A stretch of 64,000 bases of DNA from Nitrososphaerota archaeon (GCA_028867755.1 JAGWFT010000001.1:292727-356726); one strand, 5' to 3'. Shown: positions 17,077 through 48,581, numbered from the stretch's first letter. Made by a program: numbers and translations. The notes: generated by a model from the letters alone, not told the origin.

Positions 17077-17418
17077 ACATCAATTTGATCATGTTGTAAT
17101 TAGATTGCGTTGGACTACTTGTCAAATATTGTCACAATAAAAATTTCTATTTTCTATGTATCTTATTCGATCAAACTATCATAATATGTTTCAAACAAGA
17201 TCAATATAGAAAACCTTTAGATGGAAAAAAAGTGTGTGATTACACAGGTCTACTGTGATCACATTATCCATTCTTATGATCCAGTAGGCAGCTCCCCGCA
17301 TAATTTTATGGATCATTTTTAGTTGACTAGGTTGAAAAAAAATTTCATTTTGTTAGATCTTACGCGATCATGTAGATCTTTATAATAATTTTACAAATAA
17401 AATTCTGTATTGATGTTG

Positions 17419-17479
17419 GCGGTCTACCCAAAGTGACTTTGGCCTGGAGAACCTGCGCTAATACAAAACGGTAGACCGC
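17419..17479. ncRNA. Candidate structured small RNA or DNA hairpin element
   Basis: GCGGTCTACC/GGTAGACCGC outer stem, CCAAAG-tga-CTTTGG inner hairpin, T-run after it on the + strand; GC-rich island in an AT-rich intergenic region. Confidence 0.35.
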
Positions 17480-17708
17480 ATTTTTGTAATGATTTTTTTC
17501 TATCTAAAGGTTTTCTATGATTTCTTGATTGCTTACCATTAGCATTGGTATTTTATGAAATCAATATAGATATGAGATAAATGCCTGCACTACTATCTTT
17601 ACAATAAAAAACTCTAAAAGGTTTTCAAAAAATAAAACAAAAACAATTAGCAATATAGGTATATCCCATGTTAGACACAGAAAATCTCGATCACGTTTTT
17701 ATTTACGA

Positions 17709-18095
17709 ATGTGGCATCTTTATCAGGTTAAAAATTTGGCCGCAACTATAACAAAGATAGTTCGATATAAGGTGAAGAAGAAAAAACTATCAAAGCTAAA
17801 AACTGCTCTTGTAGCGTTTGTTGAGGATATAAAAAGGCACGAGTCTGGCATAGTCCTTTACGAGGTATTCCAAGAAAAGGATGATTCTACCACATTAGTA
17901 CACGTGATGACATTCAAAGATAAGAAGGCCGAGACTGCTCATGTAAAGAGTACACATGTCAAAAAATGGATCAAAACATTACACTCTATTTGCAAAGAAA
18001 ATCCCGAAGTTACAGATCTTAAACTAGTTAGATCGATCAAGGACTTGAAAGAACCATCCTCAGATACTAGTACTGTTCAAGAGCCTCAACAATAA
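17709..18095 (+). CDS. ABM-family (antibiotic biosynthesis monooxygenase-like) protein
   Basis: ESGIVLYEVFQE.DD..TLVHV..F.D..A..AH.KS.HV. Confidence 0.75.
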   Translation: MWHLYQVKNLAATITKIVRYKVKKKKLSKLKTALVAFVEDIKRHESGIVLYEVFQEKDDSTTLVHVMTFKDKKAETAHVKSTHVKKWIKTLHSICKENPEVTDLKLVRSIKDLKEPSSDTSTVQEPQQ

Positions 18096-18490
18096 GTGTG
18101 GGTTATTTTGATGATTTTTTGAGCAGTCTCATCTATGTCTACATCTGGTTCCGCGGTTACAAGTAATACTCTTCTGCCAAGCGGAAAACTCATCATAACA
18201 GCTTTTTCTCTTCTAGAGGCAGAATACATCACATGTCCCAAGCTATAATCAAAGTCTTTTCTCAAGGATACACGTAGCACAACATCAGAGTACATCTTTT
18301 TTTGTTCAGCTTCATCTTCGATTGGTACTATTCCATGCTTAAAACCGCCTGTCACTAGATTTCCCATATGATCAATTAGCCCTGCAAATCTTATCTCCGG
18401 CTCTCTAAGCAATCTAACACATTTTAGATCATAAGAAAATAATTCTTGATTGCGTTCCATTATATTTACAGATAATGGCCCTTTGTTCAT
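18086..18490 (-). CDS. Thaumarchaeal DUF6659-family protein
   Basis: EPEIRFAGLID.MGNL..GG, DFDYSLG.V.YSASRREK..MMSFP. Confidence 0.7.
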   Translation of the reverse strand: MNKGPLSVNIMERNQELFSYDLKCVRLLREPEIRFAGLIDHMGNLVTGGFKHGIVPIEDEAEQKKMYSDVVLRVSLRKDFDYSLGHVMYSASRREKAVMMSFPLGRRVLLVTAEPDVDIDETAQKIIKITHTYC

Positions 18491-18586
18491 AAGTCTTGAA
18501 TCTATATTTTATGAATCCTATGTAGATTATGTATATGAAAACTAATAGTCCAGTAGAACAGATGGCCTGAGGATATTCTATGTGTA

Positions 18587-19312
18587 TTAATAATGCATTA
18601 CACGATCAAGGAATTGATCTATTCTATGTTGCAAATCCTTGTTAATTTCTGCAACAGCCCTGTTTCCATTGATAGGTATGAGACCGTATATCTTTTGCAT
18701 CAAGTGAAATTCTCGAGAAATCTTATTTTGATAAATGAGAAAAGACTCATACATATCATTTGAAAGCCCTATGTCGGCACCAGACTCGTAATGATCTAAA
18801 GACAAATTCTTTTGAAATACTCTATGTATCAGGACTTGGGGTTCAACATCTAGATAAAATACTAGATCAGGCTTTATGGCAAAACCATAGAGACTGTGAC
18901 ACCAATTCTTATCGAGGCCTCGTACCACGTTTCTTGCTATGAGAGTGTAGATGTATCTATCAGCAAGTACTATGTATCCAGCCTGCAATGCAGGTATGAT
19001 CTTGTATTCAAATTGGTCTGCAAAATCTGCAGCGTAGAATAAGGCTAGTGTTTTTCTACCTAGATCATAATGTTGTTTTGCCTCTAAAATTCCCTTGCTT
19101 ACAAGCTCTGATCTTTTGAGACCTGTATTCAAAACAGCATGACCATCAGCTTCTAGTTTTGCCGTAATTTTCTCAATCTGGGTACTTCGGCCAGATGCAT
19201 CAGGTCCCTCGATGACAATTAGCCTACCTTTGATTTCTACATCTTGAAGATGTTTTATACCATGTCCGTAAAACTCGACAGTTCTGTTGTCTAATTCTTT
19301 CTTGTGTTTCAT
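18587..19312 (-). CDS. Thymidylate-kinase-like protein with variant P-loop (probable non-catalytic partner of a heteromeric polyphosphate kinase)
   Basis: EGPDASGRST (Walker A Lys replaced by Arg), LADRYIYT, KPDLVFYLDV; ATGA overlap with its paralogue. Confidence 0.75.
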   Translation of the reverse strand: MKHKKELDNRTVEFYGHGIKHLQDVEIKGRLIVIEGPDASGRSTQIEKITAKLEADGHAVLNTGLKRSELVSKGILEAKQHYDLGRKTLALFYAADFADQFEYKIIPALQAGYIVLADRYIYTLIARNVVRGLDKNWCHSLYGFAIKPDLVFYLDVEPQVLIHRVFQKNLSLDHYESGADIGLSNDMYESFLIYQNKISREFHLMQKIYGLIPINGNRAVAEINKDLQHRIDQFLDRVMHY

Positions 19313-34043: not shown

Positions 34044-34223
34044 CTAAACCCTCTTTTGGTGCATAGTTGACAACTGGGAATCTCTGATAACTATACTGTG
34101 TCCATAAAATTCATGCAAGCCACAATACTGATTTGCAATTTTTGCAAGTGATTTTTCATTATAATATTTTTCATTGTATAGGCCAAATGACTTGTTGCAA
34201 TTGAGACAGAATATCTCCTTCAA
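34044..34223 (-). CDS. Small Zn-finger-like protein, 59 aa (below the ORF-track cutoff)
   Basis: My translation from TTG: MKEIFCLNCNKSFGLYNEKYYNEKSLAKIANQYCGLHEFYGHSIVIRDSQLSTMHQKRV; CxxC...H...H; co-directional with the two upstream genes. Confidence 0.6.
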   Translation of the reverse strand: MKEIFCLNCNKSFGLYNEKYYNEKSLAKIANQYCGLHEFYGHSIVIRDSQLSTMHQKRV

Positions 34224-34273
34224 ATCAGAATCAGCTCATTTCTTTTTTGTCATCAGGCCCAAAAGAAATCTTT

Positions 34274-34696
34274 CTATGAACTCTTTTCACAATTGGTTAC
34301 TCCAATTGCTCCATGAACTCCCATGATGTAATTTACAATAGGAATAGGTTTGATAAATTGAATTGTCTTTTTTGGAAAATTATCTACTGCGATATCAAAT
34401 TTAATATCTCTCAAGGTCTCAGGTACTCCAATTAAAACATCATTCTGTGTTAAAACCTTTGATGAGTTATTTGTTATGTTAGAATCTGATCTTCTTGATC
34501 TAATCTCGCTTACAAGATAAGCGCAATAAGCCAGTAAAGCCTCATGAACATTTAGTCTGAGATTTCTAGATAGCTTATTCTTTATCATTTCTATTACATT
34601 TAAAAAAATTGGTTCATCTTGATCTGAGAATTCAAAAAACTTGGTAAAAGGAGTAACGTCTGGCTCTCCTTTTACCAATACTTGGATACTGATCAA
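34274..34696 (-). CDS. Stand-alone urease gamma-subunit-like protein
   Basis: LRLNVHEAL...EIRS....VLTQNDVLIGVPETL...PIP aligns by eye with UreA at 43626 (LKLNYVEAL...GARD...[15 protein letters not shown]...DPI). Confidence 0.75.
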   Translation of the reverse strand: MISIQVLVKGEPDVTPFTKFFEFSDQDEPIFLNVIEMIKNKLSRNLRLNVHEALLAYCAYLVSEIRSRRSDSNITNNSSKVLTQNDVLIGVPETLRDIKFDIAVDNFPKKTIQFIKPIPIVNYIMGVHGAIGVTNCEKSS

Positions 34697-35811
34697 TTTC
34701 TTTTTGGAATCTTTGCTTTTGGACCGTTGCCAAAGTCATAGGTGTGGTTTTTGCCACGATATTGCCTTGGTCTTACTGGGCTGCCATTTTGTACACCCTT
34801 CTTTGTAAGAGATAGTCCAGCCAATAGTTCTACTATTAGTCGGTTTGCAAGGCCAGAAGTGATTCCACCGTTATAGGAATTACCGTCACTTACGTCGTAG
34901 TTGGGAGCTACTTCCACTAGATCAAATGCAAACTTGTCGGGGTCAAATGAGGTGGAAAGTAATCTCATCAATCTCATTCCTTCCCTAGATGTCAAGCCGT
35001 TGGGTTCTGGTTCTCCAGTTCCTGGAGCATATGCGGGATCAAATGTGTCTATATCCCAGCTAATGTAAACTGCGTCGACATTATCATTTGCTCTGTCTGC
35101 AGCTTCTTTTGCAATTTGGTCTATACCAAGTTCTTCTACATCAAGCATGGTAAACCATTGAAAGTCTTGGTCTGCCATCCATTTGTAGAGATCTGGGCCT
35201 GGCCAGTATCCACGAGGTCCTATCAAGGTGTAATTCTTACCCTTCAAACAACCTAGTTCCATAATTCGTCGTATGTGTGCCCCGTGATCATACTTGAAAC
35301 CACATAGGCCTTGTGGGGCACAATCAGCGTGAGTATCAATGTGAATCATTCCGATATTCTTGTATTTCTTTGCAAAGGCTCTTACATTTGCAAAGGTAAT
35401 GGAATGATCACCGCCAAGCATGACTGGGATGCCGTCTATGTCTAAAACTTCTTTGACCTTATCAGTCATCCTTCTATGGGATTCGACCACATCGCCTGGC
35501 GAAATGTTAACGTCACCATAATCAATTGTTCTAAATACTCCAAAAGGATCAACTCCTGTTTCAATGTTAAAATGCTCGTATGGTGGAGATGGCACTGTAG
35601 AAGCTGCTCTTATAGCTCTGGGTCCATATCTTGCACCTGGTCTAATAGTCGTTCCAAAATCAAAGGGCTCTCCTATTATTGCTACATCTGGTCGTATCTT
35701 TTCTAACTCTGCCTTGCTTCTTAGCCAGGGCAATTTCAAGAACGTAGGAATACCTACAAAAATTGGTTCGTCATTGCCTCTGTATGAATCTCCATAAAAT
35801 TCCATTCCCAT
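34693..35811 (-). CDS. Ureohydrolase (arginase/agmatinase superfamily), substrate uncertain
   Basis: GGDHS, DTHAD, SWDID metal ligands; RPGARYGP; APGTG.PEP.G; DLVEVAP.YD. Confidence 0.92.
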   Translation of the reverse strand: MGMEFYGDSYRGNDEPIFVGIPTFLKLPWLRSKAELEKIRPDVAIIGEPFDFGTTIRPGARYGPRAIRAASTVPSPPYEHFNIETGVDPFGVFRTIDYGDVNISPGDVVESHRRMTDKVKEVLDIDGIPVMLGGDHSITFANVRAFAKKYKNIGMIHIDTHADCAPQGLCGFKYDHGAHIRRIMELGCLKGKNYTLIGPRGYWPGPDLYKWMADQDFQWFTMLDVEELGIDQIAKEAADRANDNVDAVYISWDIDTFDPAYAPGTGEPEPNGLTSREGMRLMRLLSTSFDPDKFAFDLVEVAPNYDVSDGNSYNGGITSGLANRLIVELLAGLSLTKKGVQNGSPVRPRQYRGKNHTYDFGNGPKAKIPKRN

Positions 35812-35878
35812 GTTTATCGCATTAGTAATACGTTAGTACATACTTAAATTTGTCTAAGTAATCTACGTTTTTAATTTA

Positions 35879-35893
35879 GTTCTACCGTCGAAC
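35879..35893. promoter_or_regulatory. GTTCGA-N3-TCGAAC palindrome, copy 1
   Basis: GTTCTA-CCG-TCGAAC (one mismatch), 68 nt upstream of the ureohydrolase start. Confidence 0.55.
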
Positions 35894-36036
35894 TTTTTCC
35901 TGTTTGACTCTTGGATTACAACCATAGCTACGTAATCTACGTGCAATAAACAAGAAACACCACAAGAATCATTTTAACATAATGAAAATTTATATCAAAA
36001 TAAAATTTTAAATATATTAGAATTAATAATAGTTGG

Positions 36037-36177
36037 ATGGCAACTGATTTAACTGAAGTTTATGCAATATTTGCAGCAATTCTTGCTGCCTCGGGATTCT
36101 TCTTGTTCTTGGGAACAATTGGAATAAAAGGAGACAAAAAAGAAGACCAATTGCACAAATCAGAAGAAAATACCTAA
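36037..36177 (+). CDS. Small single-pass membrane protein, 46 aa (below the ORF-track cutoff)
   Basis: My translation: MATDLTEVYAIFAAILAASGFFLFLGTIGIKGDKKEDQLHKSEENT. Confidence 0.55.
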   Translation: MATDLTEVYAIFAAILAASGFFLFLGTIGIKGDKKEDQLHKSEENT

Positions 36178-36228
36178 AATTTTCTTATACATATACTATT
36201 TTAAACTACATCTGCAAATGATAATGAT

Positions 36229-36750
36229 ATGATATTTCACTGGTTCAAAAAAAATCAACCAGAACTTCCGCCTACTATAGAATACAAGAAAGCTTCTTCT
36301 AAAAAAGAAGCCTCTGAAGATCTAGTAAAAATGGGTGAAGATGCAGCAAACAAAGCCAATTACGAACACGCTTTGAGGTATTTTGAGAAAGCCATAGAGA
36401 TGAACTCAAAAAATGATTTTGCCTGGGGAGACCGTGGGCTCATGCTAGATAAGCTAGGCAAAAGAGATGAGGCAATTGAATCATTTTCCAAGGCATTAGC
36501 GATAGATTCATCCAATGCCATAACTTGGCATAACAAAGGATTGATGCTCATAAAATCAAATAAGCTTGAGGAGGCCATAGAATGTTTTGATAAATCCATT
36601 GAATTAAATGGAAAATATGCAAAAGCGTATTATAACAGAGGCCGTGCCCTGGCCCTCTTAGGAAATGAAAAGGAGGGTCAAAAGAGCTTTGATACTGCAA
36701 AAAGGCTAGATCCTCTGCTATATACCAAACTTAAGAAAATGAAATCGTAA
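36229..36750 (+). CDS. TPR-repeat protein
   Basis: Successive 34-aa repeats (AWGDRG..., TWHNKG..., AYYNRG...). Confidence 0.9.
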   Translation: MIFHWFKKNQPELPPTIEYKKASSKKEASEDLVKMGEDAANKANYEHALRYFEKAIEMNSKNDFAWGDRGLMLDKLGKRDEAIESFSKALAIDSSNAITWHNKGLMLIKSNKLEEAIECFDKSIELNGKYAKAYYNRGRALALLGNEKEGQKSFDTAKRLDPLLYTKLKKMKS

Positions 36751-36826
36751 ATTTTTTTGGCAATAATAAGCATGCTCTTCAAACATCAAGAAATTTTTAA
36801 ATAAAAACAAATCTAAAAACGCACAA

Positions 36827-37009
36827 TTGTTTGGAAAAAGCTATGGATGTGGTGCATGTGGTATGCGATTCAAATATCGTGATGAGTTGGTCAAGCATGC
36901 ACAAGACATCCATGACAAAAAGACCACATATTTGTGCATCACATGTGATGAATCTTATGAAAACGAGTCATCTTTTATGTTACACATGGCACGCGAACAT
37001 AGAGTTTGA
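36827..37009 (+). CDS. Tandem C2H2 zinc-finger protein
   Basis: CGAC...F....L..H...IH and CITC...Y.....F..H...EH. Confidence 0.8.
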   Translation: MFGKSYGCGACGMRFKYRDELVKHAQDIHDKKTTYLCITCDESYENESSFMLHMAREHRV

Positions 37010-37103
37010 GCATTTTTTTGTTTTTGAAAGATTGGATTATTTTTGATATCAACACAAAAAATGATTTCACATTAAAAAATTAACCCGTGTTAGAAGCTTC
37101 TCT

Positions 37104-37118
37104 GTTCGACTGTCGAAA
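37104..37118. promoter_or_regulatory. GTTCGA-N3-TCGAAC palindrome, copy 2
   Basis: GTTCGA-CTG-TCGAAA, about 50 nt upstream of the symporter start. Confidence 0.6.
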
Positions 37119-37169
37119 TTTAGTGCAATTCCGACATATTTAATAATATATATTTACTAATCATGGGGG

Positions 37170-38759
37170 ATGGGAGACATTCCAATCGCGTATCCTATAG
37201 TGGTGCTCGCATTTGTAGCAGCAACTGCTGCTATTGGAGTTCTCGCAGTAAAATTCGTTAAAAGAAGTAGCAAGCGCTACATTGTGGCAGGCAAAAGCTT
37301 GCCACTATTTTTTATCGGTACAATGCTAGTGTCTGAAGCTGTTGATGGAAATGCTTCGCTTGGAAACGTTTCAGCTACTTTTGGAGGCGGATTCTGGGCA
37401 GGAGCGACCATACCGCTTGGTTTGGCTATTTGTCTTGTCTTAACTGGGGCCTTTTTTGGAAAAAGATTCAATAGAATGTCCATGATCACACTTGCAGATT
37501 TCTACTATAGGCGATATGGAAACACGACCGAAGTAATGTCAGGAACACTCATGGCAGTAAGTTTCATTGTTCTTGTTGCAGGAAACCTGGGTGCAAGTGG
37601 CTACATTTTGTCTGTGTTACTTGGAATACCTTTGATTTATGCAATGTTGATTTCCACTGCTGTAGTATTACTGTATACTTATTTTGGAGGTTTGTTCTCC
37701 TGTGCTTATACCGACATATTTCACATTTATCTTGCAATAATAGGATTTTGGGCCGGCTTTCTCTACTTTATCGGCCCATGGTCGCCAATTCCTGGAGGAC
37801 TAGAGACCATAGTTGCAAATGCACCTGGTAACTTCATGGACATGTCTGGTCTATACGATCTCGGTAATGGCGCGTTACCAAATTGGGCAACTCTAATATC
37901 GCTAGGGGTTGGGGACCTTGTCGCATTAGATTTCATGGAAAGAGTATTTGCAGCAGATGGTGGAAGGACTGCTCAAAAGAGTTGCTATTTTGGAGCAGGC
38001 TTGACGTTGTTATTCATAATCCCTACTACAATGGTAGGAATAATTGGAATGACTTTGGAGCCAAGCCTTACTGATTCCTACACACTCTTTCCAATTGTAG
38101 CAATAAAACATGCACCTATGGTTATAGGCATCTTGATGCTTGTAAGTACAATAAGTTGCGGCATGTCAACTGCAAACGGAGGTACATTAGCTATTGCTAG
38201 TGTACTATCAAGAAACTTTTTGCAACGCAATATCTTAAGGCTAATGAAGAAACAAAAATACAATGATAGGCAGTTGTTACTTGCCACAAGGCTTCTTGTA
38301 ATTCCTATGTTCTTTACCGCTTTTGCCCTAGGCGATCTGATTCCAAGACCTGGCTATTACCTCATACTTGCATTTGATATTGTGTTAGCAGGATGTCTAG
38401 TACCACTAGTTTTTGGAACGTATTGGAAGAAATCTACAGCTTCTGGTGCAGTAGCATGTATCGCAATAGGCACTGGACTGAGAATATTCCTATTCTTCCT
38501 CATCACAATCGCACCAGCTGGTAGCCCCTATCTAGCCTATTCGGGACTTGACACCATTATTCCACCATTGATATCGTTACCAATATTCATACTCGTAAGT
38601 CTGGCAACACAAAAGAAGACACCGCCACGACACGATGTAGTGTATCTCATTCCAAGCGACATGGATGTAGTTACTGGTAGTGATGTGAAAGACTGGGTCA
38701 ATCCAATAGACATGAGAATAGTTGACAGCAAGGGCGGCGCTAAGAGAGATCCGGTATAG
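37170..38759 (+). CDS. Sodium:solute symporter (SSS family)
   Basis: YIVAGKSL, TLADFYYRRYG, YTYFGG..S..YTD, FGTYWKK....GA; about 13 TM helices. Confidence 0.92.
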   Translation: MGDIPIAYPIVVLAFVAATAAIGVLAVKFVKRSSKRYIVAGKSLPLFFIGTMLVSEAVDGNASLGNVSATFGGGFWAGATIPLGLAICLVLTGAFFGKRFNRMSMITLADFYYRRYGNTTEVMSGTLMAVSFIVLVAGNLGASGYILSVLLGIPLIYAMLISTAVVLLYTYFGGLFSCAYTDIFHIYLAIIGFWAGFLYFIGPWSPIPGGLETIVANAPGNFMDMSGLYDLGNGALPNWATLISLGVGDLVALDFMERVFAADGGRTAQKSCYFGAGLTLLFIIPTTMVGIIGMTLEPSLTDSYTLFPIVAIKHAPMVIGILMLVSTISCGMSTANGGTLAIASVLSRNFLQRNILRLMKKQKYNDRQLLLATRLLVIPMFFTAFALGDLIPRPGYYLILAFDIVLAGCLVPLVFGTYWKKSTASGAVACIAIGTGLRIFLFFLITIAPAGSPYLAYSGLDTIIPPLISLPIFILVSLATQKKTPPRHDVVYLIPSDMDVVTGSDVKDWVNPIDMRIVDSKGGAKRDPV

Positions 38760-38802: not shown

Positions 38803-39270
38803 ATGTCAGAAAAAAACAATGTTAAAGTAAACAAAATACTTTTGGCAGTTGACAAATCAGGCTACAAAGACAAGGCAACAGGATATGCTATTACATTGGC
38901 AAAATCTTTGGGCGCTGAAGTTATAGCAATTCATGTAATTGGCAGTTCATCATTGGGTGCAACCAGAGATGTCTTGGGCTATTACAGAGGCGGCAAACTG
39001 AAGGGGTATCAAGATGCGTTAAAGAAAGATGCTGAAAAATTTCTTGATAAAGTAGTGGACGTAGGAGAAAAAGAAGGTGTGACGATAAAGTCAGATGTCA
39101 TAGTAGGATCTCCTGTCAAAAAGGCGATAATAGACTATGCCAAAAAACAAAAAGTAGATCTGATCGTGATTGGATCAAGAGGTATGACCGGCATGGAAAA
39201 ATTTGTTCTGGGAGGAGTAGCTCATGCTGTTGTATCATATGCACATTGCCCTGTACTGGCTGTAAGATAA
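38803..39270 (+). CDS. Universal stress protein
   Basis: ILLAVD.S, DLIVIGSRG......LGGVA..V...AHCPVL.VR. Confidence 0.93.
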   Translation: MSEKNNVKVNKILLAVDKSGYKDKATGYAITLAKSLGAEVIAIHVIGSSSLGATRDVLGYYRGGKLKGYQDALKKDAEKFLDKVVDVGEKEGVTIKSDVIVGSPVKKAIIDYAKKQKVDLIVIGSRGMTGMEKFVLGGVAHAVVSYAHCPVLAVR

Positions 39271-39285
39271 CCTGTTGAATGATAA

Positions 39286-39302
39286 AGTTCGATTGTCGAA
39301 CT
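39286..39302. promoter_or_regulatory. GTTCGA-N3-TCGAAC palindrome, copy 3 (perfect)
   Basis: AGTTCGA-TTG-TCGAACT, overlapping the stop codon of the ParB-like gene. Confidence 0.65.
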
Positions 39303-40050
39303 AATTGAGATGCTTTATCAGGAGATTTTTGACAAAGTCTGTAACTTCTAATCCATTCTGAGATGCTTTTACGTTTAATTGATCCCACATTTTTTTGTCG
39401 AATTTCTTCTTTGGGTTGAAAACAAGACGTACAGTCAAGAGGCCTTTGGGCGCTCCGCGTTTAACCCCAGTTTTTATCATTACTTCTTGGAGTTTTCCAT
39501 CAGATACTGCATTTACTAGCTTTTCTTGAATTGCTTTTGGTTTTCTTGCTATCTGTATTGCCTCATATAGCGTAATTTCCTCACTCTCTATTGCTTGCTG
39601 CAAAGGCTCTGCCAGTGTCAAGATACTCAGCCATTCGCTAACCGTACTCTTTGAGAGTCCATATCTCCTTGATACACCTGTAATACCTGATTCAGTAGAG
39701 TCAACTAACTTTCTTACCATTCTTGCTTTTTCAAGCGGGGGAAGATCCTTCCTTATCAGGTTCTCAAATAATGATGCAGCTTCTGCTTCTGCACCTTCAA
39801 GCTCGGTTACTACTGCAGGTATCTCCCTAGTTCCCTTTGCACTCAGTGAAAGAAATCGTCTACGACCAATCAGTAGTTTGTATCTCTTACTTGCACTATC
39901 AAATCTGACAACTACTGGTTGTAGCAGCTCAAATTTTGACAAATGATCTTTGATAAGTCTGTCTCTGGTATCTTCACCAAAGGGATGATCTTTTCTGACA
40001 TTTTCATCTGCAATATCTATGAGTTTAAGCGGTATGTTCTTGATCTTCAC
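39301..40050 (-). CDS. ParB/Spo0J-like protein (CTPase domain, HTH, C-terminal dimerisation-like domain); no ParA nearby
   Basis: NVR, LLQPVVVR, LLIGRRRF (GxRR), IPAVV, SLFENLIRKDL, HTH GITGVSRRYGLSKSTVSEWL. Confidence 0.85.
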   Translation of the reverse strand: MKIKNIPLKLIDIADENVRKDHPFGEDTRDRLIKDHLSKFELLQPVVVRFDSASKRYKLLIGRRRFLSLSAKGTREIPAVVTELEGAEAEAASLFENLIRKDLPPLEKARMVRKLVDSTESGITGVSRRYGLSKSTVSEWLSILTLAEPLQQAIESEEITLYEAIQIARKPKAIQEKLVNAVSDGKLQEVMIKTGVKRGAPKGLLTVRLVFNPKKKFDKKMWDQLNVKASQNGLEVTDFVKNLLIKHLN

Positions 40051-40585: not shown

Positions 40586-41107
40586 CTATAATGTAAGCAT
40601 TTTTTTTGCAGAGTTGATTCTTTCGAGCAAATCTTTAAGGAAGACATCAGCAAAGTGCTCGAATGTTTTTACACCGTGCTTTGTTTCATATTCTTTTTTT
40701 CTTTGGTCATATTCTGACTTGAGCCAGGTAAAGTCTGCTTCTTTTAGATTAATAATATTGTCTCTGGAGACTGCTTTTGATTCAAACATGTTAAGCATGA
40801 AAATACTTGCAAACTTGGTGAAATTGTTTGCTCTGTATTTCTTTTCATATTTTTCCTTCAATATTTTGTAGTTCTCTTCAAACCATTCTTTAACATCGGA
40901 TCTAACTGTTAAGGAAGTGTATCTTCCAGAGAAATCGATTTTAATGTTATGCATTCCTACCGCATAATATTCTCGCTTTATTTCATTCATCATAATTATC
41001 AAAGCGCTAGGAAGAAACATTCCTGGATAATACTCGTCAGTTGCATTTTGCAGTTTAGATATGATGGCAGGCTTTAGCCCTATGGTTGCATACCCTTGAC
41101 TAGGCAT
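40586..41107 (-). CDS. Putative tandem ribbon-helix-helix-like DNA-binding protein
   Basis: Internal repeats YATIGLK.., YTSLTVRSDVKEWF..F.KFA.IF, IINLKEADFTWL..F.HFA.VF. Confidence 0.55.
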   Translation of the reverse strand: MPSQGYATIGLKPAIISKLQNATDEYYPGMFLPSALIIMMNEIKREYYAVGMHNIKIDFSGRYTSLTVRSDVKEWFEENYKILKEKYEKKYRANNFTKFASIFMLNMFESKAVSRDNIINLKEADFTWLKSEYDQRKKEYETKHGVKTFEHFADVFLKDLLERINSAKKMLTL

Positions 41108-41234: not shown

Positions 41235-41489
41235 CTACAAAGGAACCATTGTATCAATCAGTCTTGAATTGGTTATGTTACCGTCTTTCATTTGAATAAC
41301 CAAATCGACTGTATGTTTCAACTTGTTCAACAGAAAAGTCACTTGTACATCCCAAGAGTCTTGAGGACCTTTTTCTGGTAATGGAAAGAGCTCTCTTATC
41401 TTGAAATCCTGGATTTCAGTGCCATAGAGTGCCTCTGTTGCTTTCTTTGAAGCTTTTTCAACGTCGTCACGTGTCTTTACTGGTGACAT
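41235..41489 (-). CDS. Hypothetical protein
   Basis: 84-aa ORF with ATG and upstream TATA-like element. Confidence 0.65.
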   Translation of the reverse strand: MSPVKTRDDVEKASKKATEALYGTEIQDFKIRELFPLPEKGPQDSWDVQVTFLLNKLKHTVDLVIQMKDGNITNSRLIDTMVPL

Positions 41490-41528: not shown

Positions 41529-41543
41529 TTTCGATTGTCGAAC
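41529..41543. promoter_or_regulatory. GTTCGA-N3-TCGAAC palindrome, copy 4
   Basis: TTTCGA-TTG-TCGAAC; the 16-mer TTCGATTGTCGAACTA is identical to 39288-39303. Confidence 0.6.
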
Positions 41544-43255
41544 TAGAACAGGTGGTATAGTCTGGTCATCGATAGTTTTTTTGACGGTTCAGTTGTAGCC
41601 AACTTTCCATCCACCAAAACTTTGTAGGTTTCAGGGTCGATCTCTATCTTAGGCAACAAATTGTTGTAAAACATATTCTTCTTGCTTATCTTTCGGCAAT
41701 TTTTGACCGGAAGTAATTTCTTTTTTAAACCTAATTTTCTTGATAAGCCATTTTGTATTGCTAGTTTTGAAGTAAAAGTTACCGAGGTAGAATATACTGC
41801 CTTTCCAAATGCGCCAAACATGGGACGATAATATACTGGCTCTGGGGTTGGAATTGATGCATTTGGGTCTCCCATAAGAGAATAGGCAACAAATCCTCCT
41901 TTAATTATGAGTCTGGGCTTTACACCAAAGAATTCAGGTGACCACATCACAATGTCAGCTAATTTACCTACTTCTAAGGAACCAACGTAGCTAGAAATTC
42001 CATGAGTTATTGCTGGGTTGATGGTAAGTTTTGCAAGATATCTTTTGACTCGAATATTGTCATTATCTCCTGTTTCTTCCCCTAGACGACCAGACATCTT
42101 TTTCATTTTGTCAGCAGTTTGCCATGCTCTGATGCCTACCTCTCCAACTCTTCCCATTGCCTGACTATCAGAAGAATACATGCTTAAAGCTCCAATATCA
42201 TGCAGAACATCTTCAGCAGCAATTGTTTCGCCTCTGATCCTAGACTCTGCAAATGCTATGTCCTCTCTTACAGACGGATTTAGGTGATGGCAAACCATCA
42301 TCATGTCAAGATGTTCCTCTAACGTGTTAACCGTAAATGGTCTTGTTGGATTTGTAGAAGAGGGAAGAATATTTTTCTCACCAGCTATTTTCATAATGTC
42401 TGGTGCATGTCCACCGCCGGCTCCTTCTGTGTGATATGTGTGAATTGTTCTTCCGCCTATTGCTCTGATTGTATCGTCAACAAAACCACATTCATTTAAT
42501 GTGTCTGTGTGGATAGCCACTTGAGTATCTGTTTTGTCTGCAACACGCAGAGCAGCATCAATAGTTGCAGGAGTAGAACCCCAATCTTCATGTAATTTCA
42601 AACCGCAAGCTCCCGCAGCAATCTGCTCCATTAGTGCAGGTTCTCTTGAGTCATTTCCTTTTCCAAGTAGCCCAAAATTTAGAGGAAACTCGTCAAGAGA
42701 CTCAAGCATTCTATGGATATTCCATGGGCCAGGTGTACATGTTGTTGCTTTAGTGCCATCAGCAGGCCCCGTACCGCCGCCAATCATAGTTGTGGTGCCA
42801 CTACAGATTGCATCTATTGCCTGTTGAGGTGCAATGAAATGAATGTGTGTATCAATTATTCCAGGAGTGCATATTGTATGCTCTCCTGCAATTACTTCTG
42901 TGTTTGCAGATATTACCATGTCTACATTGTCCATGATATTTGGATTGCCTGCTTTTCCGATACCAGCTATTTTGCCATCTTTGATGCCAATGTCCGCCTT
43001 GATGATACCAAGGACAGGATCCATGATAACGGCATTTGTTATTACTAGGTCAAGTGAATTTCTGCTAATGACACCACTTGCCTGACCCATCCCATCCCTT
43101 GCACTCTTACCTCCGCCAAAAACTATCTCATCCCCATAGGTCTGAAAGTCCTTCTCGATCTCAATTATGAGATCCGTATCGGCAAGTCTAATTTTGTCGC
43201 CCTTGGTAGGACCGTAAAGGTCAACGTATTGCTTTCTGGGAATTATTAGTGTCAT
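41543..43255 (-). CDS. ureC: Urease alpha (large catalytic) subunit
   Basis: [56 protein letters not shown]. Confidence 0.99.
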
Positions 43256-43623
43256 TTTTGATCACTGTCCTTGAATCCTAGTTTTTGTGCTTTCTTGATT
43301 GCAATTTGCTTTCTGGTGGCAAGATCTCCATTGACAAGACCACTGAATCCGTATACTCTTTTCAGTCCACTGTACTCTGTAATTTCTACTTCCTTTGTGT
43401 CACCGGGCTCAAACCTCACTGATGTCCCAGCTGGGATATTTAGATGAAAACCATAAGATCTCTTTCTAGAAAATACTAGAGCCTTGTTGGTTTCAAAGAA
43501 ATGCGTGTGAGAACCTACCTGTATTGGCCTGTCTCCAGAATTGCTAACTTTGATCTTTATTGTGTTTCTGCCTTTATTTGCAATAATGGGAACATCATTT
43601 ATGAAATATTCTCCAGGGATCAT
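43252..43623 (-). CDS. ureB: Urease beta subunit
   Basis: [30 protein letters not shown]. Confidence 0.98.
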
Positions 43624-43625
43624 AT

Positions 43626-43943
43626 CTATACGATAGGATCATGAACAGTGACAAGTTTAGTTCCGTCTTCAAATGTTGCCTCAGTCTGCACTGTCTTAAT
43701 CAACTCAGGCACTCCAGGCAAAACATCATCTCTTGCTAAAACTCTCCTTCCTGAACTCATTAGTTCTGATACTGACTTGCCGTCTCTTGCACCCTCAACT
43801 ATGTGGTCTGCAATTAGTGCCAAAGCTTCTACGTAATTAAGCTTCAAACCTCTTGCTTTTCTTCTTCGTGCAACTTCTGCTGTCATAAAAATATAGAGCT
43901 TGTCTATCTCTCTTGGAGTAAGCATCATATCTGTATCTATCAT
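43626..43943 (-). CDS. ureA: Urease gamma subunit
   Basis: [26 protein letters not shown]. Confidence 0.98.
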
Positions 43944-44024: not shown

Positions 44025-44525
44025 ATGCTTACTATCACGTCAATAATAGGAAACATTTTTCACGACAAAGAATTGATGGACAAGTTCAAACAAATGGAAT
44101 CTCAAAAAAGATGTGAAAGGATAAAGATCTCGCGCCTTGAGTTGGAAAGAGGCAGAATTAGGAAAACAACAGACCTTGGAACCGATGTTGGTCTTGTTCT
44201 TGATTCCAGGCTTTATCATGGAGATGTCATACTGTCAGATCGGGAAAAATTCATTTTAGTTGAACAATTGCCTGAAAAAGTGATCTCCATAAAAATAAAA
44301 AGTCTAAACGATAATCCTGTTGGTCTACTTACTCTTGGCCATATTGTGGGAAACAGACACAAGCCAATCGTGATAAATAACGATGTTCTCTCATTTCCAA
44401 TCCAGGCAGATTCAGAGGCTGATGTGTTCAAGAAGCTGTTGTCTGGAATTGTGGCTAATCTTGAGTTTGATGTAGAGGAGCAGATTTTTCAACCACAACA
44501 TGGGATGTATATGCATGAGCACTAG
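44025..44525 (+). CDS. ureE: Urease accessory protein UreE
   Basis: RIRKTTD.GTDVG, HGDVI, GH.VGNRH.P; only a short terminal HGMYMHEH. Confidence 0.92.
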   Translation: MLTITSIIGNIFHDKELMDKFKQMESQKRCERIKISRLELERGRIRKTTDLGTDVGLVLDSRLYHGDVILSDREKFILVEQLPEKVISIKIKSLNDNPVGLLTLGHIVGNRHKPIVINNDVLSFPIQADSEADVFKKLLSGIVANLEFDVEEQIFQPQHGMYMHEH

Positions 44526-45216
44526 CCATGAATTTTTTTTAATGCAACTATCAGATTCTTTCTTTCCGTCCGGTATGTTTGGATTGTCTAATGGTTTAGA
44601 GTCGCTTGCAAAGCACAAGAAAATAAAAACTGATAACGATGTTCTAAATTTCATTGAACAGCAAATAGAATTTCAGCTAATACCATGTGATTGCATGATT
44701 TTTCTAATAGCAATGGATGCAGCAAAGAATGAAAATATCGAAGAACTCGTTGAAGCAGATAAAAAATTCTACTCGATGAGGCTGATAAGAGAGGCAAGAA
44801 ACACTTCTGCCAGGTCTGGTTCACAAATATTAAACTGCATAATCCAAATGGCATCTGACAAGGAAGAAAACAGAATTGCAAAGCAATTTCAAAAGAAAAT
44901 ATCGTCAAACGAAACTCCTGGAACATATCCAGTTTGTTTGGGAATAACTGCAAGCCTATTTGGAATTCCGCCTGAGAGTGGAACAAGAATGATGCTTTAT
45001 TCATTTAGCCAAAGCATTATTGCTGCAGCAATAAGACTAGGAATAATTGAGCACGTTAGCGGTCAGAAAATTCTCACGTTGCTCTCAAGCAAGATAAACA
45101 ACATCTCAAAGAATCTCAAAAAAGAACCCCTGGACAATCTCTGGCAACTGACACCCATAACAGACATTTTCCAAATGATTCATGAGCATGATAGTTCCAA
45201 GATGTTCATAACATAG
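44500..45216 (+). CDS. ureF: Urease accessory protein UreF
   Basis: LSDSFFPSG.F..S.GLE, AAAIRL, HEH..K.F.T. Confidence 0.93.
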   Translation: MGCICMSTSHEFFLMQLSDSFFPSGMFGLSNGLESLAKHKKIKTDNDVLNFIEQQIEFQLIPCDCMIFLIAMDAAKNENIEELVEADKKFYSMRLIREARNTSARSGSQILNCIIQMASDKEENRIAKQFQKKISSNETPGTYPVCLGITASLFGIPPESGTRMMLYSFSQSIIAAAIRLGIIEHVSGQKILTLLSSKINNISKNLKKEPLDNLWQLTPITDIFQMIHEHDSSKMFIT

Positions 45217-45224
45217 ATCTAAAG

Positions 45225-45899
45225 TTGTTTTTCATGTCAAAAAATAAAAAAATACCAAAAGTTGGAATCGGTGGACCGGTAGGATCAGGTAAAACTCGCC
45301 TAATAGAAAGAGTGGTGCCAGTCTTGATAGAAAAAGGCTACAGGTGCTGTATCATATCAAACGATGTCATATCAAAAGAAGATGCAGAAAGAATGCAGAG
45401 AGTGCTATCTACAGAGCTTAAAGTCATGCCTGAAAACATGATTATAGGAATAGCTACTGGAGGCTGTCCACACACTGCAATACGTGAAGACCCTACAATA
45501 AATCTGGCAGTTATTGATGAAATAGAAAAAAAAGATCCCAGCCTTGATTTGATTATCATTGAAAGTGGTGGTGATAACGTTATGACTACATTTAGCCCGG
45601 CTCTTGCAGACTATTTCATTTACATAATAGACGTGGCAGGAGGCGACAAGTATCCAAGAAAAGGTGGGTTAGGAATAGAAAGCAGTGACTTGCTTGTAAT
45701 CAACAAGATTGATTTGGCATCACATGTGGGTGCAGATCTTGCTATCATGGAAAGAGATGCAAAAAAAATTCGAGGAGAAAAGCCCTTTGTGTTTGTCAAC
45801 TGCCAGACTGGTGAGGGAATAGAACGTGTTGCTGAAAACATAATCAAGTCTATTCTGTTTGACAAAAAACCTATTGCAAAAAAGGATAGAATAAGATGA
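45225..45899 (+). CDS. ureG: Urease accessory GTPase UreG
   Basis: GGPVGSGKT, TGGCPHTAIRED, ESGGDN, NKID. Confidence 0.97.
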   Translation: MFFMSKNKKIPKVGIGGPVGSGKTRLIERVVPVLIEKGYRCCIISNDVISKEDAERMQRVLSTELKVMPENMIIGIATGGCPHTAIREDPTINLAVIDEIEKKDPSLDLIIIESGGDNVMTTFSPALADYFIYIIDVAGGDKYPRKGGLGIESSDLLVINKIDLASHVGADLAIMERDAKKIRGEKPFVFVNCQTGEGIERVAENIIKSILFDKKPIAKKDRIR

Positions 45900-46789
45900 G
45901 CTCTCACATCCCAGACATTTTCAAAAATTTTGTAAATAAGGAAATCAAAATGCCAGGACAAAATGGTACAATAAAGATAGAGATTCGATCAGACGAAAAT
46001 TCTAAAACGTACATCAAATCATTGATGTCAAAAGCTCCATTTCTGATTCAGAAAGCCATATACCCAGACTCGGGCTATCCGCAATTTGCGCATATCTACA
46101 TGATGTCATCTTCTGGAGGTATATTACAAGGTGATGAACAGAGAATTGACATCATAATGGATTCAAATTCTGCAGCAAGAATCACTAACCAATCCGCGAC
46201 TAAAATTTACAAGATGGAAGGCGGCTATGCCTCACAATACATCAACATACGCGTTAAAGAAGGAAGCTATATGGAATTTGTTCCACACCAGATAATTCCA
46301 TTCAAATCATCAAGATTCTATCAAGAGGTAAATCTTGAAGTTGACGAGAATGCAGTACTGGTATATTCTGAGATCATATCTGCAGGTCGCATAGCGTCGG
46401 GCGAAAAATATGATTTTGATCTCTGCTTTCTTCGCACTTCGGCCCATAGAAAAGATCAGGTACTCTTTACAGATGTCATGAGCCTGAACCATAAAGACAA
46501 ACCAAATCTTGAATCAGTATTTGGCGGGAAAAGCATCTTTTCTACTGTTTACATAATTGGTAGCTCTATTGCAACAGAAAAAATTGTAGATGAAATCAAT
46601 TTGGCAACAAAAAATACGTCTCTTCTAGCAAGCTGCTCATCCCTTCCATATGATTGTGGGATAATTGTGAGAATGCTTGCAGATTCTGCTTCTGAAATCA
46701 TTGTACTAACAGAATCTATAGCCAATATCTTGAGAGCTTATGTCAAGACAGAACACAAAATAGAACCTGCAATTAGCAACCATCAATAG
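45896..46789 (+). CDS. ureD: Urease accessory protein UreD/UreH
   Basis: SSSGGILQGD, TNQSATKIY, P...IPF..SRFYQ. Confidence 0.93.
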   Translation: MSSHIPDIFKNFVNKEIKMPGQNGTIKIEIRSDENSKTYIKSLMSKAPFLIQKAIYPDSGYPQFAHIYMMSSSGGILQGDEQRIDIIMDSNSAARITNQSATKIYKMEGGYASQYINIRVKEGSYMEFVPHQIIPFKSSRFYQEVNLEVDENAVLVYSEIISAGRIASGEKYDFDLCFLRTSAHRKDQVLFTDVMSLNHKDKPNLESVFGGKSIFSTVYIIGSSIATEKIVDEINLATKNTSLLASCSSLPYDCGIIVRMLADSASEIIVLTESIANILRAYVKTEHKIEPAISNHQ

Positions 46790-46883: not shown

Positions 46884-48581
46884 GTGGATTCTGCAAGTAA
46901 TTTGCTTGGTGAAGGGACAGAATTTTCTGTAGGCGAAGAGACTCGTAGATATAATTTACTTGCAGGAAAATTAATTGCAGATCTCATCAAGACATCGTTT
47001 GGACCACGAGGATTTGAAAAAATGTACATTGATCTTCTGGGCGAGGTCACTTTGAGCAAGAATGGCTCTACCATATTGCGCAAGATCGATGTTGACCATC
47101 CAGCTGCTAAGGTAATGATAGATGCATCAAATTCCGTTGATAATGAGGTAGGCGACGGAACAATATCTGTAGTTGTTCTGACCGGTTCTCTTCTTGAAAA
47201 AGCAGAAAAAATGCTGGATTCAGGAATCTCCCCTTCAACCATTGAAGCAGGATACAAGGAGGCTGCCGAGATGGCACTAAACATTGTAAGATCAATTGCA
47301 AAATCACCAAGCTATAAGGATAAAGAAGTGATGGCCAAGCTAGCTGAAACATGTCTGAGCTCAAAAGCAATTTCCATTTTATGTGAAAGTAAATCTGTAT
47401 CAGAGCTAGTCACTGAAGCCTTTTGTACGATAGCAGATTTTGCAAACAGAAAAGTTGAAACAGATGATATCAAGATAGAAGAAAAACCAGGCAATACAGC
47501 AGACATTGAACTAGTTAGAGGAGTAGTCATTGACAAGACAATCGATAATTCTGCCATGCCTAGGATGATAGAGAATGCAAAGATCCTTCTAATTAATCAT
47601 GAACTTGACAATGAAAGAACAAAGACTGATGCAGAAATCACAATCAACTCCCCAGAAGAAATGCAGGCATACATTTCAAGAGAAAGCAAAGATGTAAAGG
47701 AAAAAACCCAGAAGATAATTGATTCAGGCGCAAATGTTGTAATTTCTCAGAAGGGAATTAGTCTGCTGGCTCAGCATTATCTATCGCGTGCAAACATAAT
47801 CTCTCTTCGCAGGGTAAAGGAAAATGATCTCCACTGGCTCAAGAAGGCAGTGGGCAGTGAGATAACAAATGATCTAGATAACATAACTGAACAACACCTG
47901 GGCTTTGCAGGCAAGGTCTATGAAAAATTTATCGGCGATGATAAAATGGTGTTTGTAGAAAAGTGTAAAAATCCAAAATCAGTCACTATATTATTACGAG
48001 CAAATTCCAAGAGGTTGCTAGATGAATATCATCGTACGGTGCTTGATGCTATCGCAGTTCTAAAAGACTTTTTTATCAATCCATCAATAGTGGCAGGCGG
48101 AGGTTCAACTGAAACAATTATTGCAGGTGAACTACGAAAAAGATCGCTTTCTATAGAAGGCAAGGAACAGACTGTGATTCAAAATTTTGCCGAGGCTCTT
48201 GAGGAAATTCCATTAACAATAGCCAGAAATTCTGGAATGAATGTAATTGACACGCTTGTTCAGCTAAGAAGCAAGAATGCTCAATACAATAATGGAACAA
48301 TTCACTCTTGGTACGGCGTAGATGCAATCGAGAGAAAAGTAAAAGAAATGTATTCTCAAGATATCATTGAGCCGCTTGTAGTCAAAGAACAAGTAATAAA
48401 GACAGCATCAGAGGTTGCATCACTACTTTTGCGCGTAGATGAAGTCGTTATGAAACAACCTGTAATGTATACACATACCCATGCAAATGGTACTAAACAC
48501 TCGCACAAAAAAGGAAACACACCACATGATCACTTTGACAATCTTGGAAAGATGCAGAGACCTTCGCATCATTATTACTGA
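46884..48581 (+). CDS. Divergent group II chaperonin (thermosome) subunit with His-rich C-terminal tail
   Basis: SFGPRG, EVGDGT, ISQKGI, AGGGS.E, LEEIP; tail HTHANGTKHSHKKGNTPHDH...HHYY. Confidence 0.92.
   Translation: MDSASNLLGEGTEFSVGEETRRYNLLAGKLIADLIKTSFGPRGFEKMYIDLLGEVTLSKNGSTILRKIDVDHPAAKVMIDASNSVDNEVGDGTISVVVLTGSLLEKAEKMLDSGISPSTIEAGYKEAAEMALNIVRSIAKSPSYKDKEVMAKLAETCLSSKAISILCESKSVSELVTEAFCTIADFANRKVETDDIKIEEKPGNTADIELVRGVVIDKTIDNSAMPRMIENAKILLINHELDNERTKTDAEITINSPEEMQAYISRESKDVKEKTQKIIDSGANVVISQKGISLLAQHYLSRANIISLRRVKENDLHWLKKAVGSEITNDLDNITEQHLGFAGKVYEKFIGDDKMVFVEKCKNPKSVTILLRANSKRLLDEYHRTVLDAIAVLKDFFINPSIVAGGGSTETIIAGELRKRSLSIEGKEQTVIQNFAEALEEIPLTIARNSGMNVIDTLVQLRSKNAQYNNGTIHSWYGVDAIERKVKEMYSQDIIEPLVVKEQVIKTASEVASLLLRVDEVVMKQPVMYTHTHANGTKHSHKKGNTPHDHFDNLGKMQRPSHHYY

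Follow-up and report, generated by a model that had tools for sequence, protein, structure and literature searches.

Within a 64,000-nucleotide stretch of a Nitrososphaerota archaeon genome (GCA_028867755.1, JAGWFT010000001.1:292727-356726; hereafter the window), we examined a gene cluster at positions 34,044 to 38,759 that encodes an arginase-fold ureohydrolase (UH), a protein resembling the gamma subunit of urease (gamL), and an SSS symporter of the SSF family. The source is a 1.64-Mb genome, 99.95% complete, of an ammonia-oxidizing archaeon (AOA) that its closest named relatives mark as Nitrosotalea-like, and no compositional anomaly was seen across the region. A first-pass annotation, made from the sequence alone, had read the cluster as an atypical ureohydrolase operon served by the symporter and adjoining a full urease operon. 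Gene calls bore out its set of open reading frames (ORFs) and every distance it gave: UH, gamL, and a 59-codon ORF (orf59) are co-directional on the minus strand; the TTG start of gamL overlaps the TGA stop of UH; 1359 nt separate the symporter and UH starts (the annotated 1.4 kb); and ureC ends (41543) 2784 nt past the symporter (the annotated 2.8 kb), within a complete ureABC/ureEFGD set (Table 1). Compared across genomes, SSS, UH, and gamL appear as the core of a conserved AOA module, usually in the company of a TPR protein, two small proteins (h84 and h173), and a His-tailed thermosome paralog. We describe the components in turn and then weigh what the module might do.

Table 1. Features of the ureohydrolase–urease island, with positions counted from the first letter of the window
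Feature	Position	Strand	Description
orf59	34044..34223	-	Predicted small C2H2-type zinc-binding protein, 59 aa; lineage-restricted accessory gene
gamL	34274..34696	-	Divergent UreA paralog, 140 aa, with extra N-terminal beta-hairpin; putative UH partner, translationally coupled
UH	34693..35811	-	Arginase-fold ureohydrolase, 372 aa; distinct subfamily (YDHGA[H/W], GTGEPEP)
UH promoter region	35812..35945	.	Imperfect palindrome GTTCGACGGTAGAAC (35879-35893) between two ACGTAGATTAC boxes; TATA-like AAATTTAAGTA; repeats D6, D7, I18
TPR-repeat protein	36229..36750	+	Pfam TPR_1/2/8; adjoins UH in nearly all loci; conserved module member
60-aa protein	36827..37009	+	Two C2H2 zinc-finger motifs, read from sequence; directly upstream of SSS
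Palindrome GTTCGACTGTCGAA	37104..37118	.	Precedes the SSS start by 53 nt; a TATA-like AT run comes next
SSS (SSF family) symporter	37170..38759	+	PF00474, 77.5 bits; UH-linked orthogroup, 529 aa
Universal stress protein	38803..39270	+	PF00582; module member in soil lineages
ParB-like helix-turn-helix protein	39301..40050	-	ParB_N + HTH_ParB; palindrome copy 39288-39300 abuts the stop codon
h173	40586..41107	-	173 aa; 45–92% identity across the module
h84	41235..41489	-	84 aa; 45–94% identity across the module; palindrome 41530-41542 sits 41 nt upstream of the start
ureC, ureB, ureA	41543..43943	-	Urease structural genes; true ureA at 43626-43943
ureE, ureF, ureG, ureD	44025..46789	+	Nickel-insertion accessory genes
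Thermosome paralog	46884..48581	+	His-rich C-terminal tail; Cpn60_TCP1, 500 bits; conserved module member

UH matches the Pfam Arginase profile PF00491 over almost its entire length (266.8 bits against a cut-off of 22; profile positions 2–279 of 280), and the top PDB folds recovered with its AF2 model (pLDDT 87.5) are all ureohydrolases. All six metal ligands (H136, D159, H161, D163, D253, and D255) are present and invariant in 66 aligned sequences, as the first-pass annotation had noted for this protein. The two specificity loops that it had flagged as unusual—DHGAH (residues 175–179) and GTGEPE (residues 264–269)—are likewise real and extend throughout a subfamily defined by G-F-x-YDHGA[H/W], GTGEPEP, and TTIRPG; the nearest outgroup instead carries GHGTP, GTGTPEP, and TTNRPG and lacks the six-residue insertion of the subfamily. 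When a profile was run against 1.84 billion representatives, one full-length 50%-identity representative scored 683 bits (fragments, 449 and 394), whereas the next full-length relative reached 314, a drop that marks the subfamily as tight and discrete. Its members are 74–98% identical in AOA, 51–55% in haloarchaea, and 56–60% in a few other lineages, and 341 species genomes match its motifs. In the phylogeny (a quick search, with SH-aLRT support only), the subfamily clade has support 96 and the AOA clade within it 99, with both other arginase-family paralogs of the genome on very long branches outside the subfamily. We also observed that UH from the window is 91–95% identical to many UH proteins of Nitrososphaera and other Nitrososphaeraceae, but only about 82% identical to those of other sampled Nitrosopumilaceae genera; in the same Nitrososphaera/Nitrososphaeraceae loci, ureC is 80–85% and gamL 35–48% identical. 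This pattern suggests that the module has been under extreme purifying selection, exchanged laterally among soil AOA, or both.

Databases name proteins of this kind 'agmatinase' or 'guanidinobutyrase', and UH does match agmatinase models in part, so an ordinary agmatinase of polyamine synthesis that happens to lie near urease has to be considered. UH falls below the cut-offs of both the TIGR01230 agmatinase equivalog (154.5 against 174.3 bits) and PRK02190 (196.4 against 302), while the other two of the three arginase-family genes in the genome pass the former (220.8 and 181.8). Its loops are YDHGAH/GTGEPEP rather than the agmatinase-type GHGTP/GTGTPE. We further surveyed 151 species genomes of the family (Nitrosopumilaceae) with five queries; the set includes one unpublished genome (G092), on which no conclusion rests. 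UH is absent from 86 of these genomes, in which agmatinase-like paralogs are still retained. Given the sub-threshold scores, the passing paralogs, and the separate clade, we reject a housekeeping agmatinase, a reading to which we attach only the slightest probability. The first-pass annotation had raised the counter-case of a housekeeping-clade enzyme without co-regulation with the symporter or urease; the phylogeny contradicts such a clade, and an operator-like palindrome is common to the UH and SSS promoters (see below). The same annotation had placed a Trp in the specificity loop of the guanidinase GdmH and doubted that UH belongs there. Thr97 and Trp305 of GdmH are reported to confer guanidine specificity (PMC11410670); in our alignment to 7esr, Thr97 corresponds to T55 of UH and is kept, whereas Trp305 corresponds to E267 and is not. 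On the Trp305 position we reject a GdmH-type guanidinase, in agreement with that doubt.

Among solved structures, the closest relatives of UH are GbuA (180 bits), GdmH and the Nitrospira inopinata guanidinase (163), PAH (162), and GpuA (157), with metformin hydrolase also among the best and Escherichia coli SpeB further away (about 109 bits); a fold search ranks these relatives alike. Pseudomonas aeruginosa GbuA, the best solved match (34% identity; Foldseek; GbuA and GpuA correspond to 3nio and 3nip), has similar loop lengths around YD...G, but carries AHGTT and GTGTPE in place of DHGAH and GTGEPE. Since the UH pocket has gained acidic residues, a carboxylate tail would not be favored there, and the genomic context of UH is transport and urease instead of amino-acid catabolism. 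Relative to GdmH (Synechocystis Sll1077; 7esr, 7oi1) and the N. inopinata enzyme (9fek), UH shares the arginase fold and an intact binuclear metal site (about 32–33% identity; TM 0.77), and, as with the comammox guanidinase, the urea it released would supply a nitrifier's urease. Apart from Glu267 for Trp305, it differs in its post-DxHxD loop and a 7-residue insertion (the NSYNGGI region), has a UreA-like partner gene, and is accompanied by neither HypA/HypB genes nor a riboswitch; the published AOA guanidinase screen did not pick it up (PMC11410670). The heteromeric, Ni-dependent metformin and dimethylguanidine hydrolases (MefH/MfmAB and DmgH) offer a third comparison, as they need a non-catalytic second protein from the same operon and have nickel-handling genes nearby (PMC11399263). 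Their TM to UH is again 0.77, at only about 26% identity, and their partner is a degenerate ureohydrolase paralog, unlike the UreA paralog encoded next to UH.

That partner gene, gamL, belongs to the urease gamma family at some remove. Against Pfam Urease_gamma (PF00547; cut-off 23.9), it scores 35.2 bits, compared with 151.2 for the true UreA of the window, and it fails both NCBIfam UreA cut-offs (33.9 against 123 and 29.8 against 82.3). The two proteins are 26% identical over the whole gamma domain; gamL retains the UreA fold and the LNxxEA, GVPE, and PI motifs, and its AF2 model (pLDDT 89) matches 2fvh, 4fur, and 2kau in Foldseek with probability 1.0 and TM 0.8. It departs from UreA in a variable C-terminal tail and in an added N-terminal segment, residues 2–23 of which form a confident beta-hairpin in the model. 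Its position is also distinctive: always encoded after UH and never with ureB or ureC, it follows UH directly in 78 of the 80 species loci from Nitrosopumilales and Nitrososphaerales, and in each of the 16 loci for which both ORFs were called, the UH stop and the gamL start share 4 or 1 nt. A gamL homolog also occurs in the Nitrosotalea okcheonensis enrichment. The protein evolves fast, at 25–77% identity where UH shows 74–98%. These features identify gamL as a probable UreA paralog recruited as the partner of UH, an unrelated hydrolase; one metagenomic contig, in which UH stands directly in front of a real ureA, suggests how the pairing arose. The module would combine a known kind of enzyme with a partner that is undescribed.

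The co-occurrence of these genes across the family supports the linkage to symporter and urease that the first-pass annotation had drawn from proximity. UH is present in 65 of the 151 genomes and ureC in 82; 63 carry both, 19 have ureC without UH, and UH occurs in only 2 of the 69 urease-negative genomes (76% and 85% complete). UH and ureC also come and go together within at least 10 genera, and among ten genomes of the genus to which the window belongs, its own included, three have both and seven have neither. The presence of UH thus appears to depend on urease. The symporter follows a different rule. UH and the UH-linked SSS coincide in 62 genomes, with four mismatches, three of which fall in incomplete genomes and the fourth in a 99% complete assembly broken into 210 contigs (G018), while the UH-linked SSS turns up in just one of the 19 urease-positive, UH-negative genomes, itself 60% complete. 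Where the ure operon lies more than 90 kb from UH, the symporter lies no more than 8 kb from UH in nine of ten genomes checked (25 kb in the tenth, G083). On this comparative evidence, the UH-linked SSS seems to track UH rather than urease. In a closed genome of the same genus (G094, probably Nitrosotalea okcheonensis; C1:1717000-1736999), decayed ureC, ureG, and ureD remnants flank the module at about 16900-18600 of that interval, and an intact ure operon with two DUR3-like genes lies about 120 kb away.

This symporter must be distinguished from a second SSF group with which it has been merged. Like the AOA 'DUR3/SSS' urea transporters, the SSS of the window is an SSF protein by Pfam, lies in a urea island, and would be lumped as dur3 in KEGG-style annotation; genes of this type were indeed counted as dur3 in a KEGG-based survey (PMC10753782). 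However, UH-linked symporters in the module have 505–530 aa and form a separate orthogroup, bound to UH save for the single UH-negative genome noted above, whereas the DUR3-like SSF proteins have 640–810 aa and usually lie directly beside ureC, with or without UH. The DUR3-like form occurs in 42 genomes, all with ureC, including 15 of the 19 that are urease-positive and UH-negative. Both types coexist in 26 genomes, and 36, that of the window among them, have only the UH-linked SSS; a DUR3-like query found no match in the genome of the window at E<=1e-40, and its SSS is not orthologous to the long SSF beside ureC. Since the UH-linked SSS is tied to UH, stays with UH when urease is elsewhere, and coexists with DUR3-like genes, it likely serves UH and is not just another urea transporter. 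In the PDB and the protein atlas, searches bearing on its specificity returned only generic SSF matches (best, the choline transporter CHT1 at 71 bits), and, as it falls in the group that the literature labels AOA SSS/DUR3 urea transporters, it may carry urea instead of, or besides, a guanidino compound. We discounted the second SSF gene of the genome as a carrier of urea or guanidino compounds, since it is MctP-like and was present, with or without urease, in each of the nine other genomes sampled from the genus. In Nitrososphaeraceae, the UH-linked SSS comes in two subtypes, 72–79% or about 50–56% identical to that of the window, both adjoining UH.

Outside AOA, the association between UH and a transporter recurs in other arrangements. 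In Salinigranum rubrum and a second haloarchaeon, UH stands beside an SSF protein 35% identical to the AOA SSS and an AbrB/PhoU-type regulator, with urease elsewhere in the genome. On one contig, UH, ureABC, and ureFGD are succeeded by two SSF genes, the first of them an SSS homolog with 37% identity. On another, an ABC system that is urt-like by its Pfam domains precedes ureABCEFGD and UH, after which comes a second ABC importer, whose binding protein is of the NMT1/phosphonate type. Bacterial guanidine riboswitches are associated with ABC importers of the nitrate/sulfonate/taurine family, and the importer following UH on this last contig fits that type, yet no riboswitch was found there. None of the contexts seen places a gene for catabolism of an organic co-product beside UH. 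In one haloarchaeal locus (L039, 9242-10096), a ZIP-family metal transporter directly follows the UH homolog, with an SSS homolog two genes on.

The UH and SSS promoters of the window are further linked by a palindrome. The first-pass annotation had reported the same element upstream of both genes, and the sites indeed share GTTCGA-N3-TCGAAC, with one mismatch in the UH copy. The core TTCGA-N3-TCGAA gives 8 strand matches in the window against 0.63 expected, at four places: 69 nt upstream of UH (the mismatched copy), upstream of SSS, between the ends of the universal stress protein and ParB-like genes (39288), and upstream of h84, just past the ureC stop (41530). Exact sites number four genome-wide, three of them in the island and the fourth on a small contig. 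The UH promoter falls into near-invariant blocks in an alignment of six genomes from two genera, and the position of the palindrome is kept in two other genomes from two genera (G094 and G005). These features make it an operator-like element, apparently common to the two promoters and nearly private to the island, with the ParB-like protein as a candidate binder. Marine and Nitrosocosmicus-like loci yielded no copy, and we therefore read the palindrome as lineage-specific regulation added to a much older module. Two small contigs of the assembly (G000) carry the fourth exact site (C48, 169-181) and an 83%-identical ureC fragment (C49, 1-372), and could be fragments of this island from a variant strain.

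Taken as a whole, the module is best explained, in our view, as a route from an imported guanidino compound to ammonia, a reading we hold to be somewhat more probable than its opposite. The SSS symporter would import a small guanidino compound; UH, probably in a complex with gamL as a non-catalytic partner, would hydrolyze it and release urea; and urease would then turn the urea into ammonia for energy and assimilation. Urea as the product, the identity of the substrate, the specificity of transport, the contact between UH and gamL, and the metal (Ni or Mn) are all inferred here. Such a dedicated route was already proposed in the first-pass annotation and is upheld in part: its ties to the symporter, to urease, and to the shared palindrome stand, but the symporter may carry urea. 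Our guess at the substrate, with guanidine or a close small analog such as methylguanidine as the leading candidate, follows from three considerations: no gene for an organic co-product accompanies UH; the pocket residues are acidic or aromatic (D175, H176, H/W179, and E267) and not basic; and nothing would be formed beyond urea plus either ammonia or a small amine. To our knowledge, AOA have no routes for larger amine or acid co-products. More tentatively still, as a possibility well short of even, UH may represent a second, non-GdmH guanidine/methylguanidine hydrolase present in both AOA orders and in haloarchaea; in AOA, the enzyme would consist of two proteins, one of them derived from UreA, and would receive its substrate through the dedicated SSS.

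Several observations weigh against the proposed route. Of the 82 urease-positive genomes, 78 carry either a DUR3-like SSF or the UH-linked SSS, and together with the 36 that have the latter alone, this is the pattern expected if the UH-linked SSS itself were a urea transporter. Part of the co-occurrence of SSS and UH could also stem from single gain or loss events, given their physical linkage. No guanidine riboswitch was found next to the non-AOA UH homologs. Haloarchaeal UH loci have no gamL, so the partner is not required for catalysis in general, and a weak search for UH–gamL fusion proteins found none, which is itself weak evidence. Published screens report no guanidine-degradation genes in AOA (PMC11410670; PMC12625717), though these sought the known clade. 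The transporter distribution also favors an alternative that combines internal recycling with urea uptake. Here the SSS would be a second urea transporter, and UH would free urea from a guanidino compound made in the cell, such as agmatine or arginine, for nitrogen recovery by urease, with no guanidino substrate taken up from outside. KEGG-based surveys call such genes dur3 (PMC10753782), and in soil AOA metagenome-assembled genomes, SSS was noted in passing to cluster with an 'agmatinase (SpeB)', conserved and expressed in the metatranscriptome, a pair read as an SSS urea transporter and a SpeB that regulates the urea level (PMC11131427). Neither of the two haloarchaeal urease operons examined has a urea transporter beside it, which suits this alternative and prevents the haloarchaeal comparison from discriminating. 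Yet two bona fide agmatinase paralogs are already encoded in the genome, and the remodeled UH pocket has been conserved for a role distinct from that of the GHGTP/GTGTPE group. The symporter stays with UH and not with ure when the two are separated, in haloarchaea too; 26 genomes keep a DUR3-like gene at ureC in addition to the SSS at UH; and the contig with the urt-like system has its second ABC importer directly after UH. On balance, we consider internal recycling improbable, if still a serious contender.

A further alternative explains the link to urease through shared metal maturation rather than through urea: UH would be a nickel enzyme, as are GdmH and metformin hydrolase, and would occur only alongside urease because it uses UreEFGD and the His-tailed thermosome for metal insertion; gamL, by mimicking UreA, would be a docking adaptor; and the product could be something other than urea. 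Adjacent Ni chaperones are required by the known Ni-dependent ureohydrolases, one of which also depends on a non-catalytic partner subunit (PMC11399263). In urease, the surface contacted by UreD includes part of the gamma domain, although the main UreD contacts are reported with the alpha and beta domains (PMC10121161). The His-rich thermosome is a conserved neighbor of UH–gamL, and the ZIP metal transporter after one haloarchaeal UH points in the same direction. However, haloarchaeal UH does without gamL, and every characterized relative cleaves a guanidino or amidino C–N bond, mostly yielding urea. We judge shared maturation to be unlikely, but it can hold together with the guanidino route, as an alternative or additional link between UH and urease.

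In soil and ocean alike, AOA rank among the most abundant nitrifiers, and the substrates beyond ammonia that we know of for them are essentially urea and, rarely, cyanate. Were the guanidino route correct, it would add a new substrate class to archaeal nitrification, with guanidine-type compounds as direct substrates, and would change the picture in which guanidine use is confined to comammox bacteria and some ammonia-oxidizing bacteria, contradicting the notion that AOA lack guanidine-degradation genes. The module itself is widespread, under very strong purifying selection, and urease-dependent. Its analysis separates two groups of SSF transporters that annotation merges as 'dur3' and reveals a urease subunit paralog apparently recruited by an unrelated hydrolase; in the literature, we found no paper that sets apart the two SSF groups or describes the UH subfamily or its UreA-like partner. 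The question is directly testable because the module is present in closed genomes, some of which probably belong to cultured or enriched strains.

The remaining genes of the island differ in how closely they follow the core. The first-pass annotation had included orf59 in the operon, which is only partly upheld: the gene is co-directional and conserved in 10 Nitrosotalea-like loci (40–76% identity by tblastn, with C6, C9, H37, and H42 invariant), but it was not found in marine or most Nitrososphaeraceae loci, and no family match emerged in Pfam/NCBIfam profile searches. It thus appears confined to Nitrosotalea-like lineages and outside the core of the module. With tblastn, the 60-aa double C2H2 protein, a possible small regulator, was recovered at 54–100% identity from Nitrosotalea-like loci and from some of those in Nitrososphaeraceae, and the ParB-like gene is kept in the modules of Nitrosotalea-like and Nitrososphaeraceae loci. 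Three small proteins without an assigned function are encoded between the ParB-like gene and ureCBA; h84 and h173 have no match in Pfam, NCBIfam, or PDB profiles, and both accompany the module across genera at 45–94% identity. The thermosome (group II chaperonin) paralog adjoins UH–gamL in most loci of both AOA orders, even where no ure gene is nearby. GroES of Helicobacter pylori has a nickel-binding His-rich tail, and by analogy, the tail of the thermosome paralog suggests a role in nickel-enzyme maturation.

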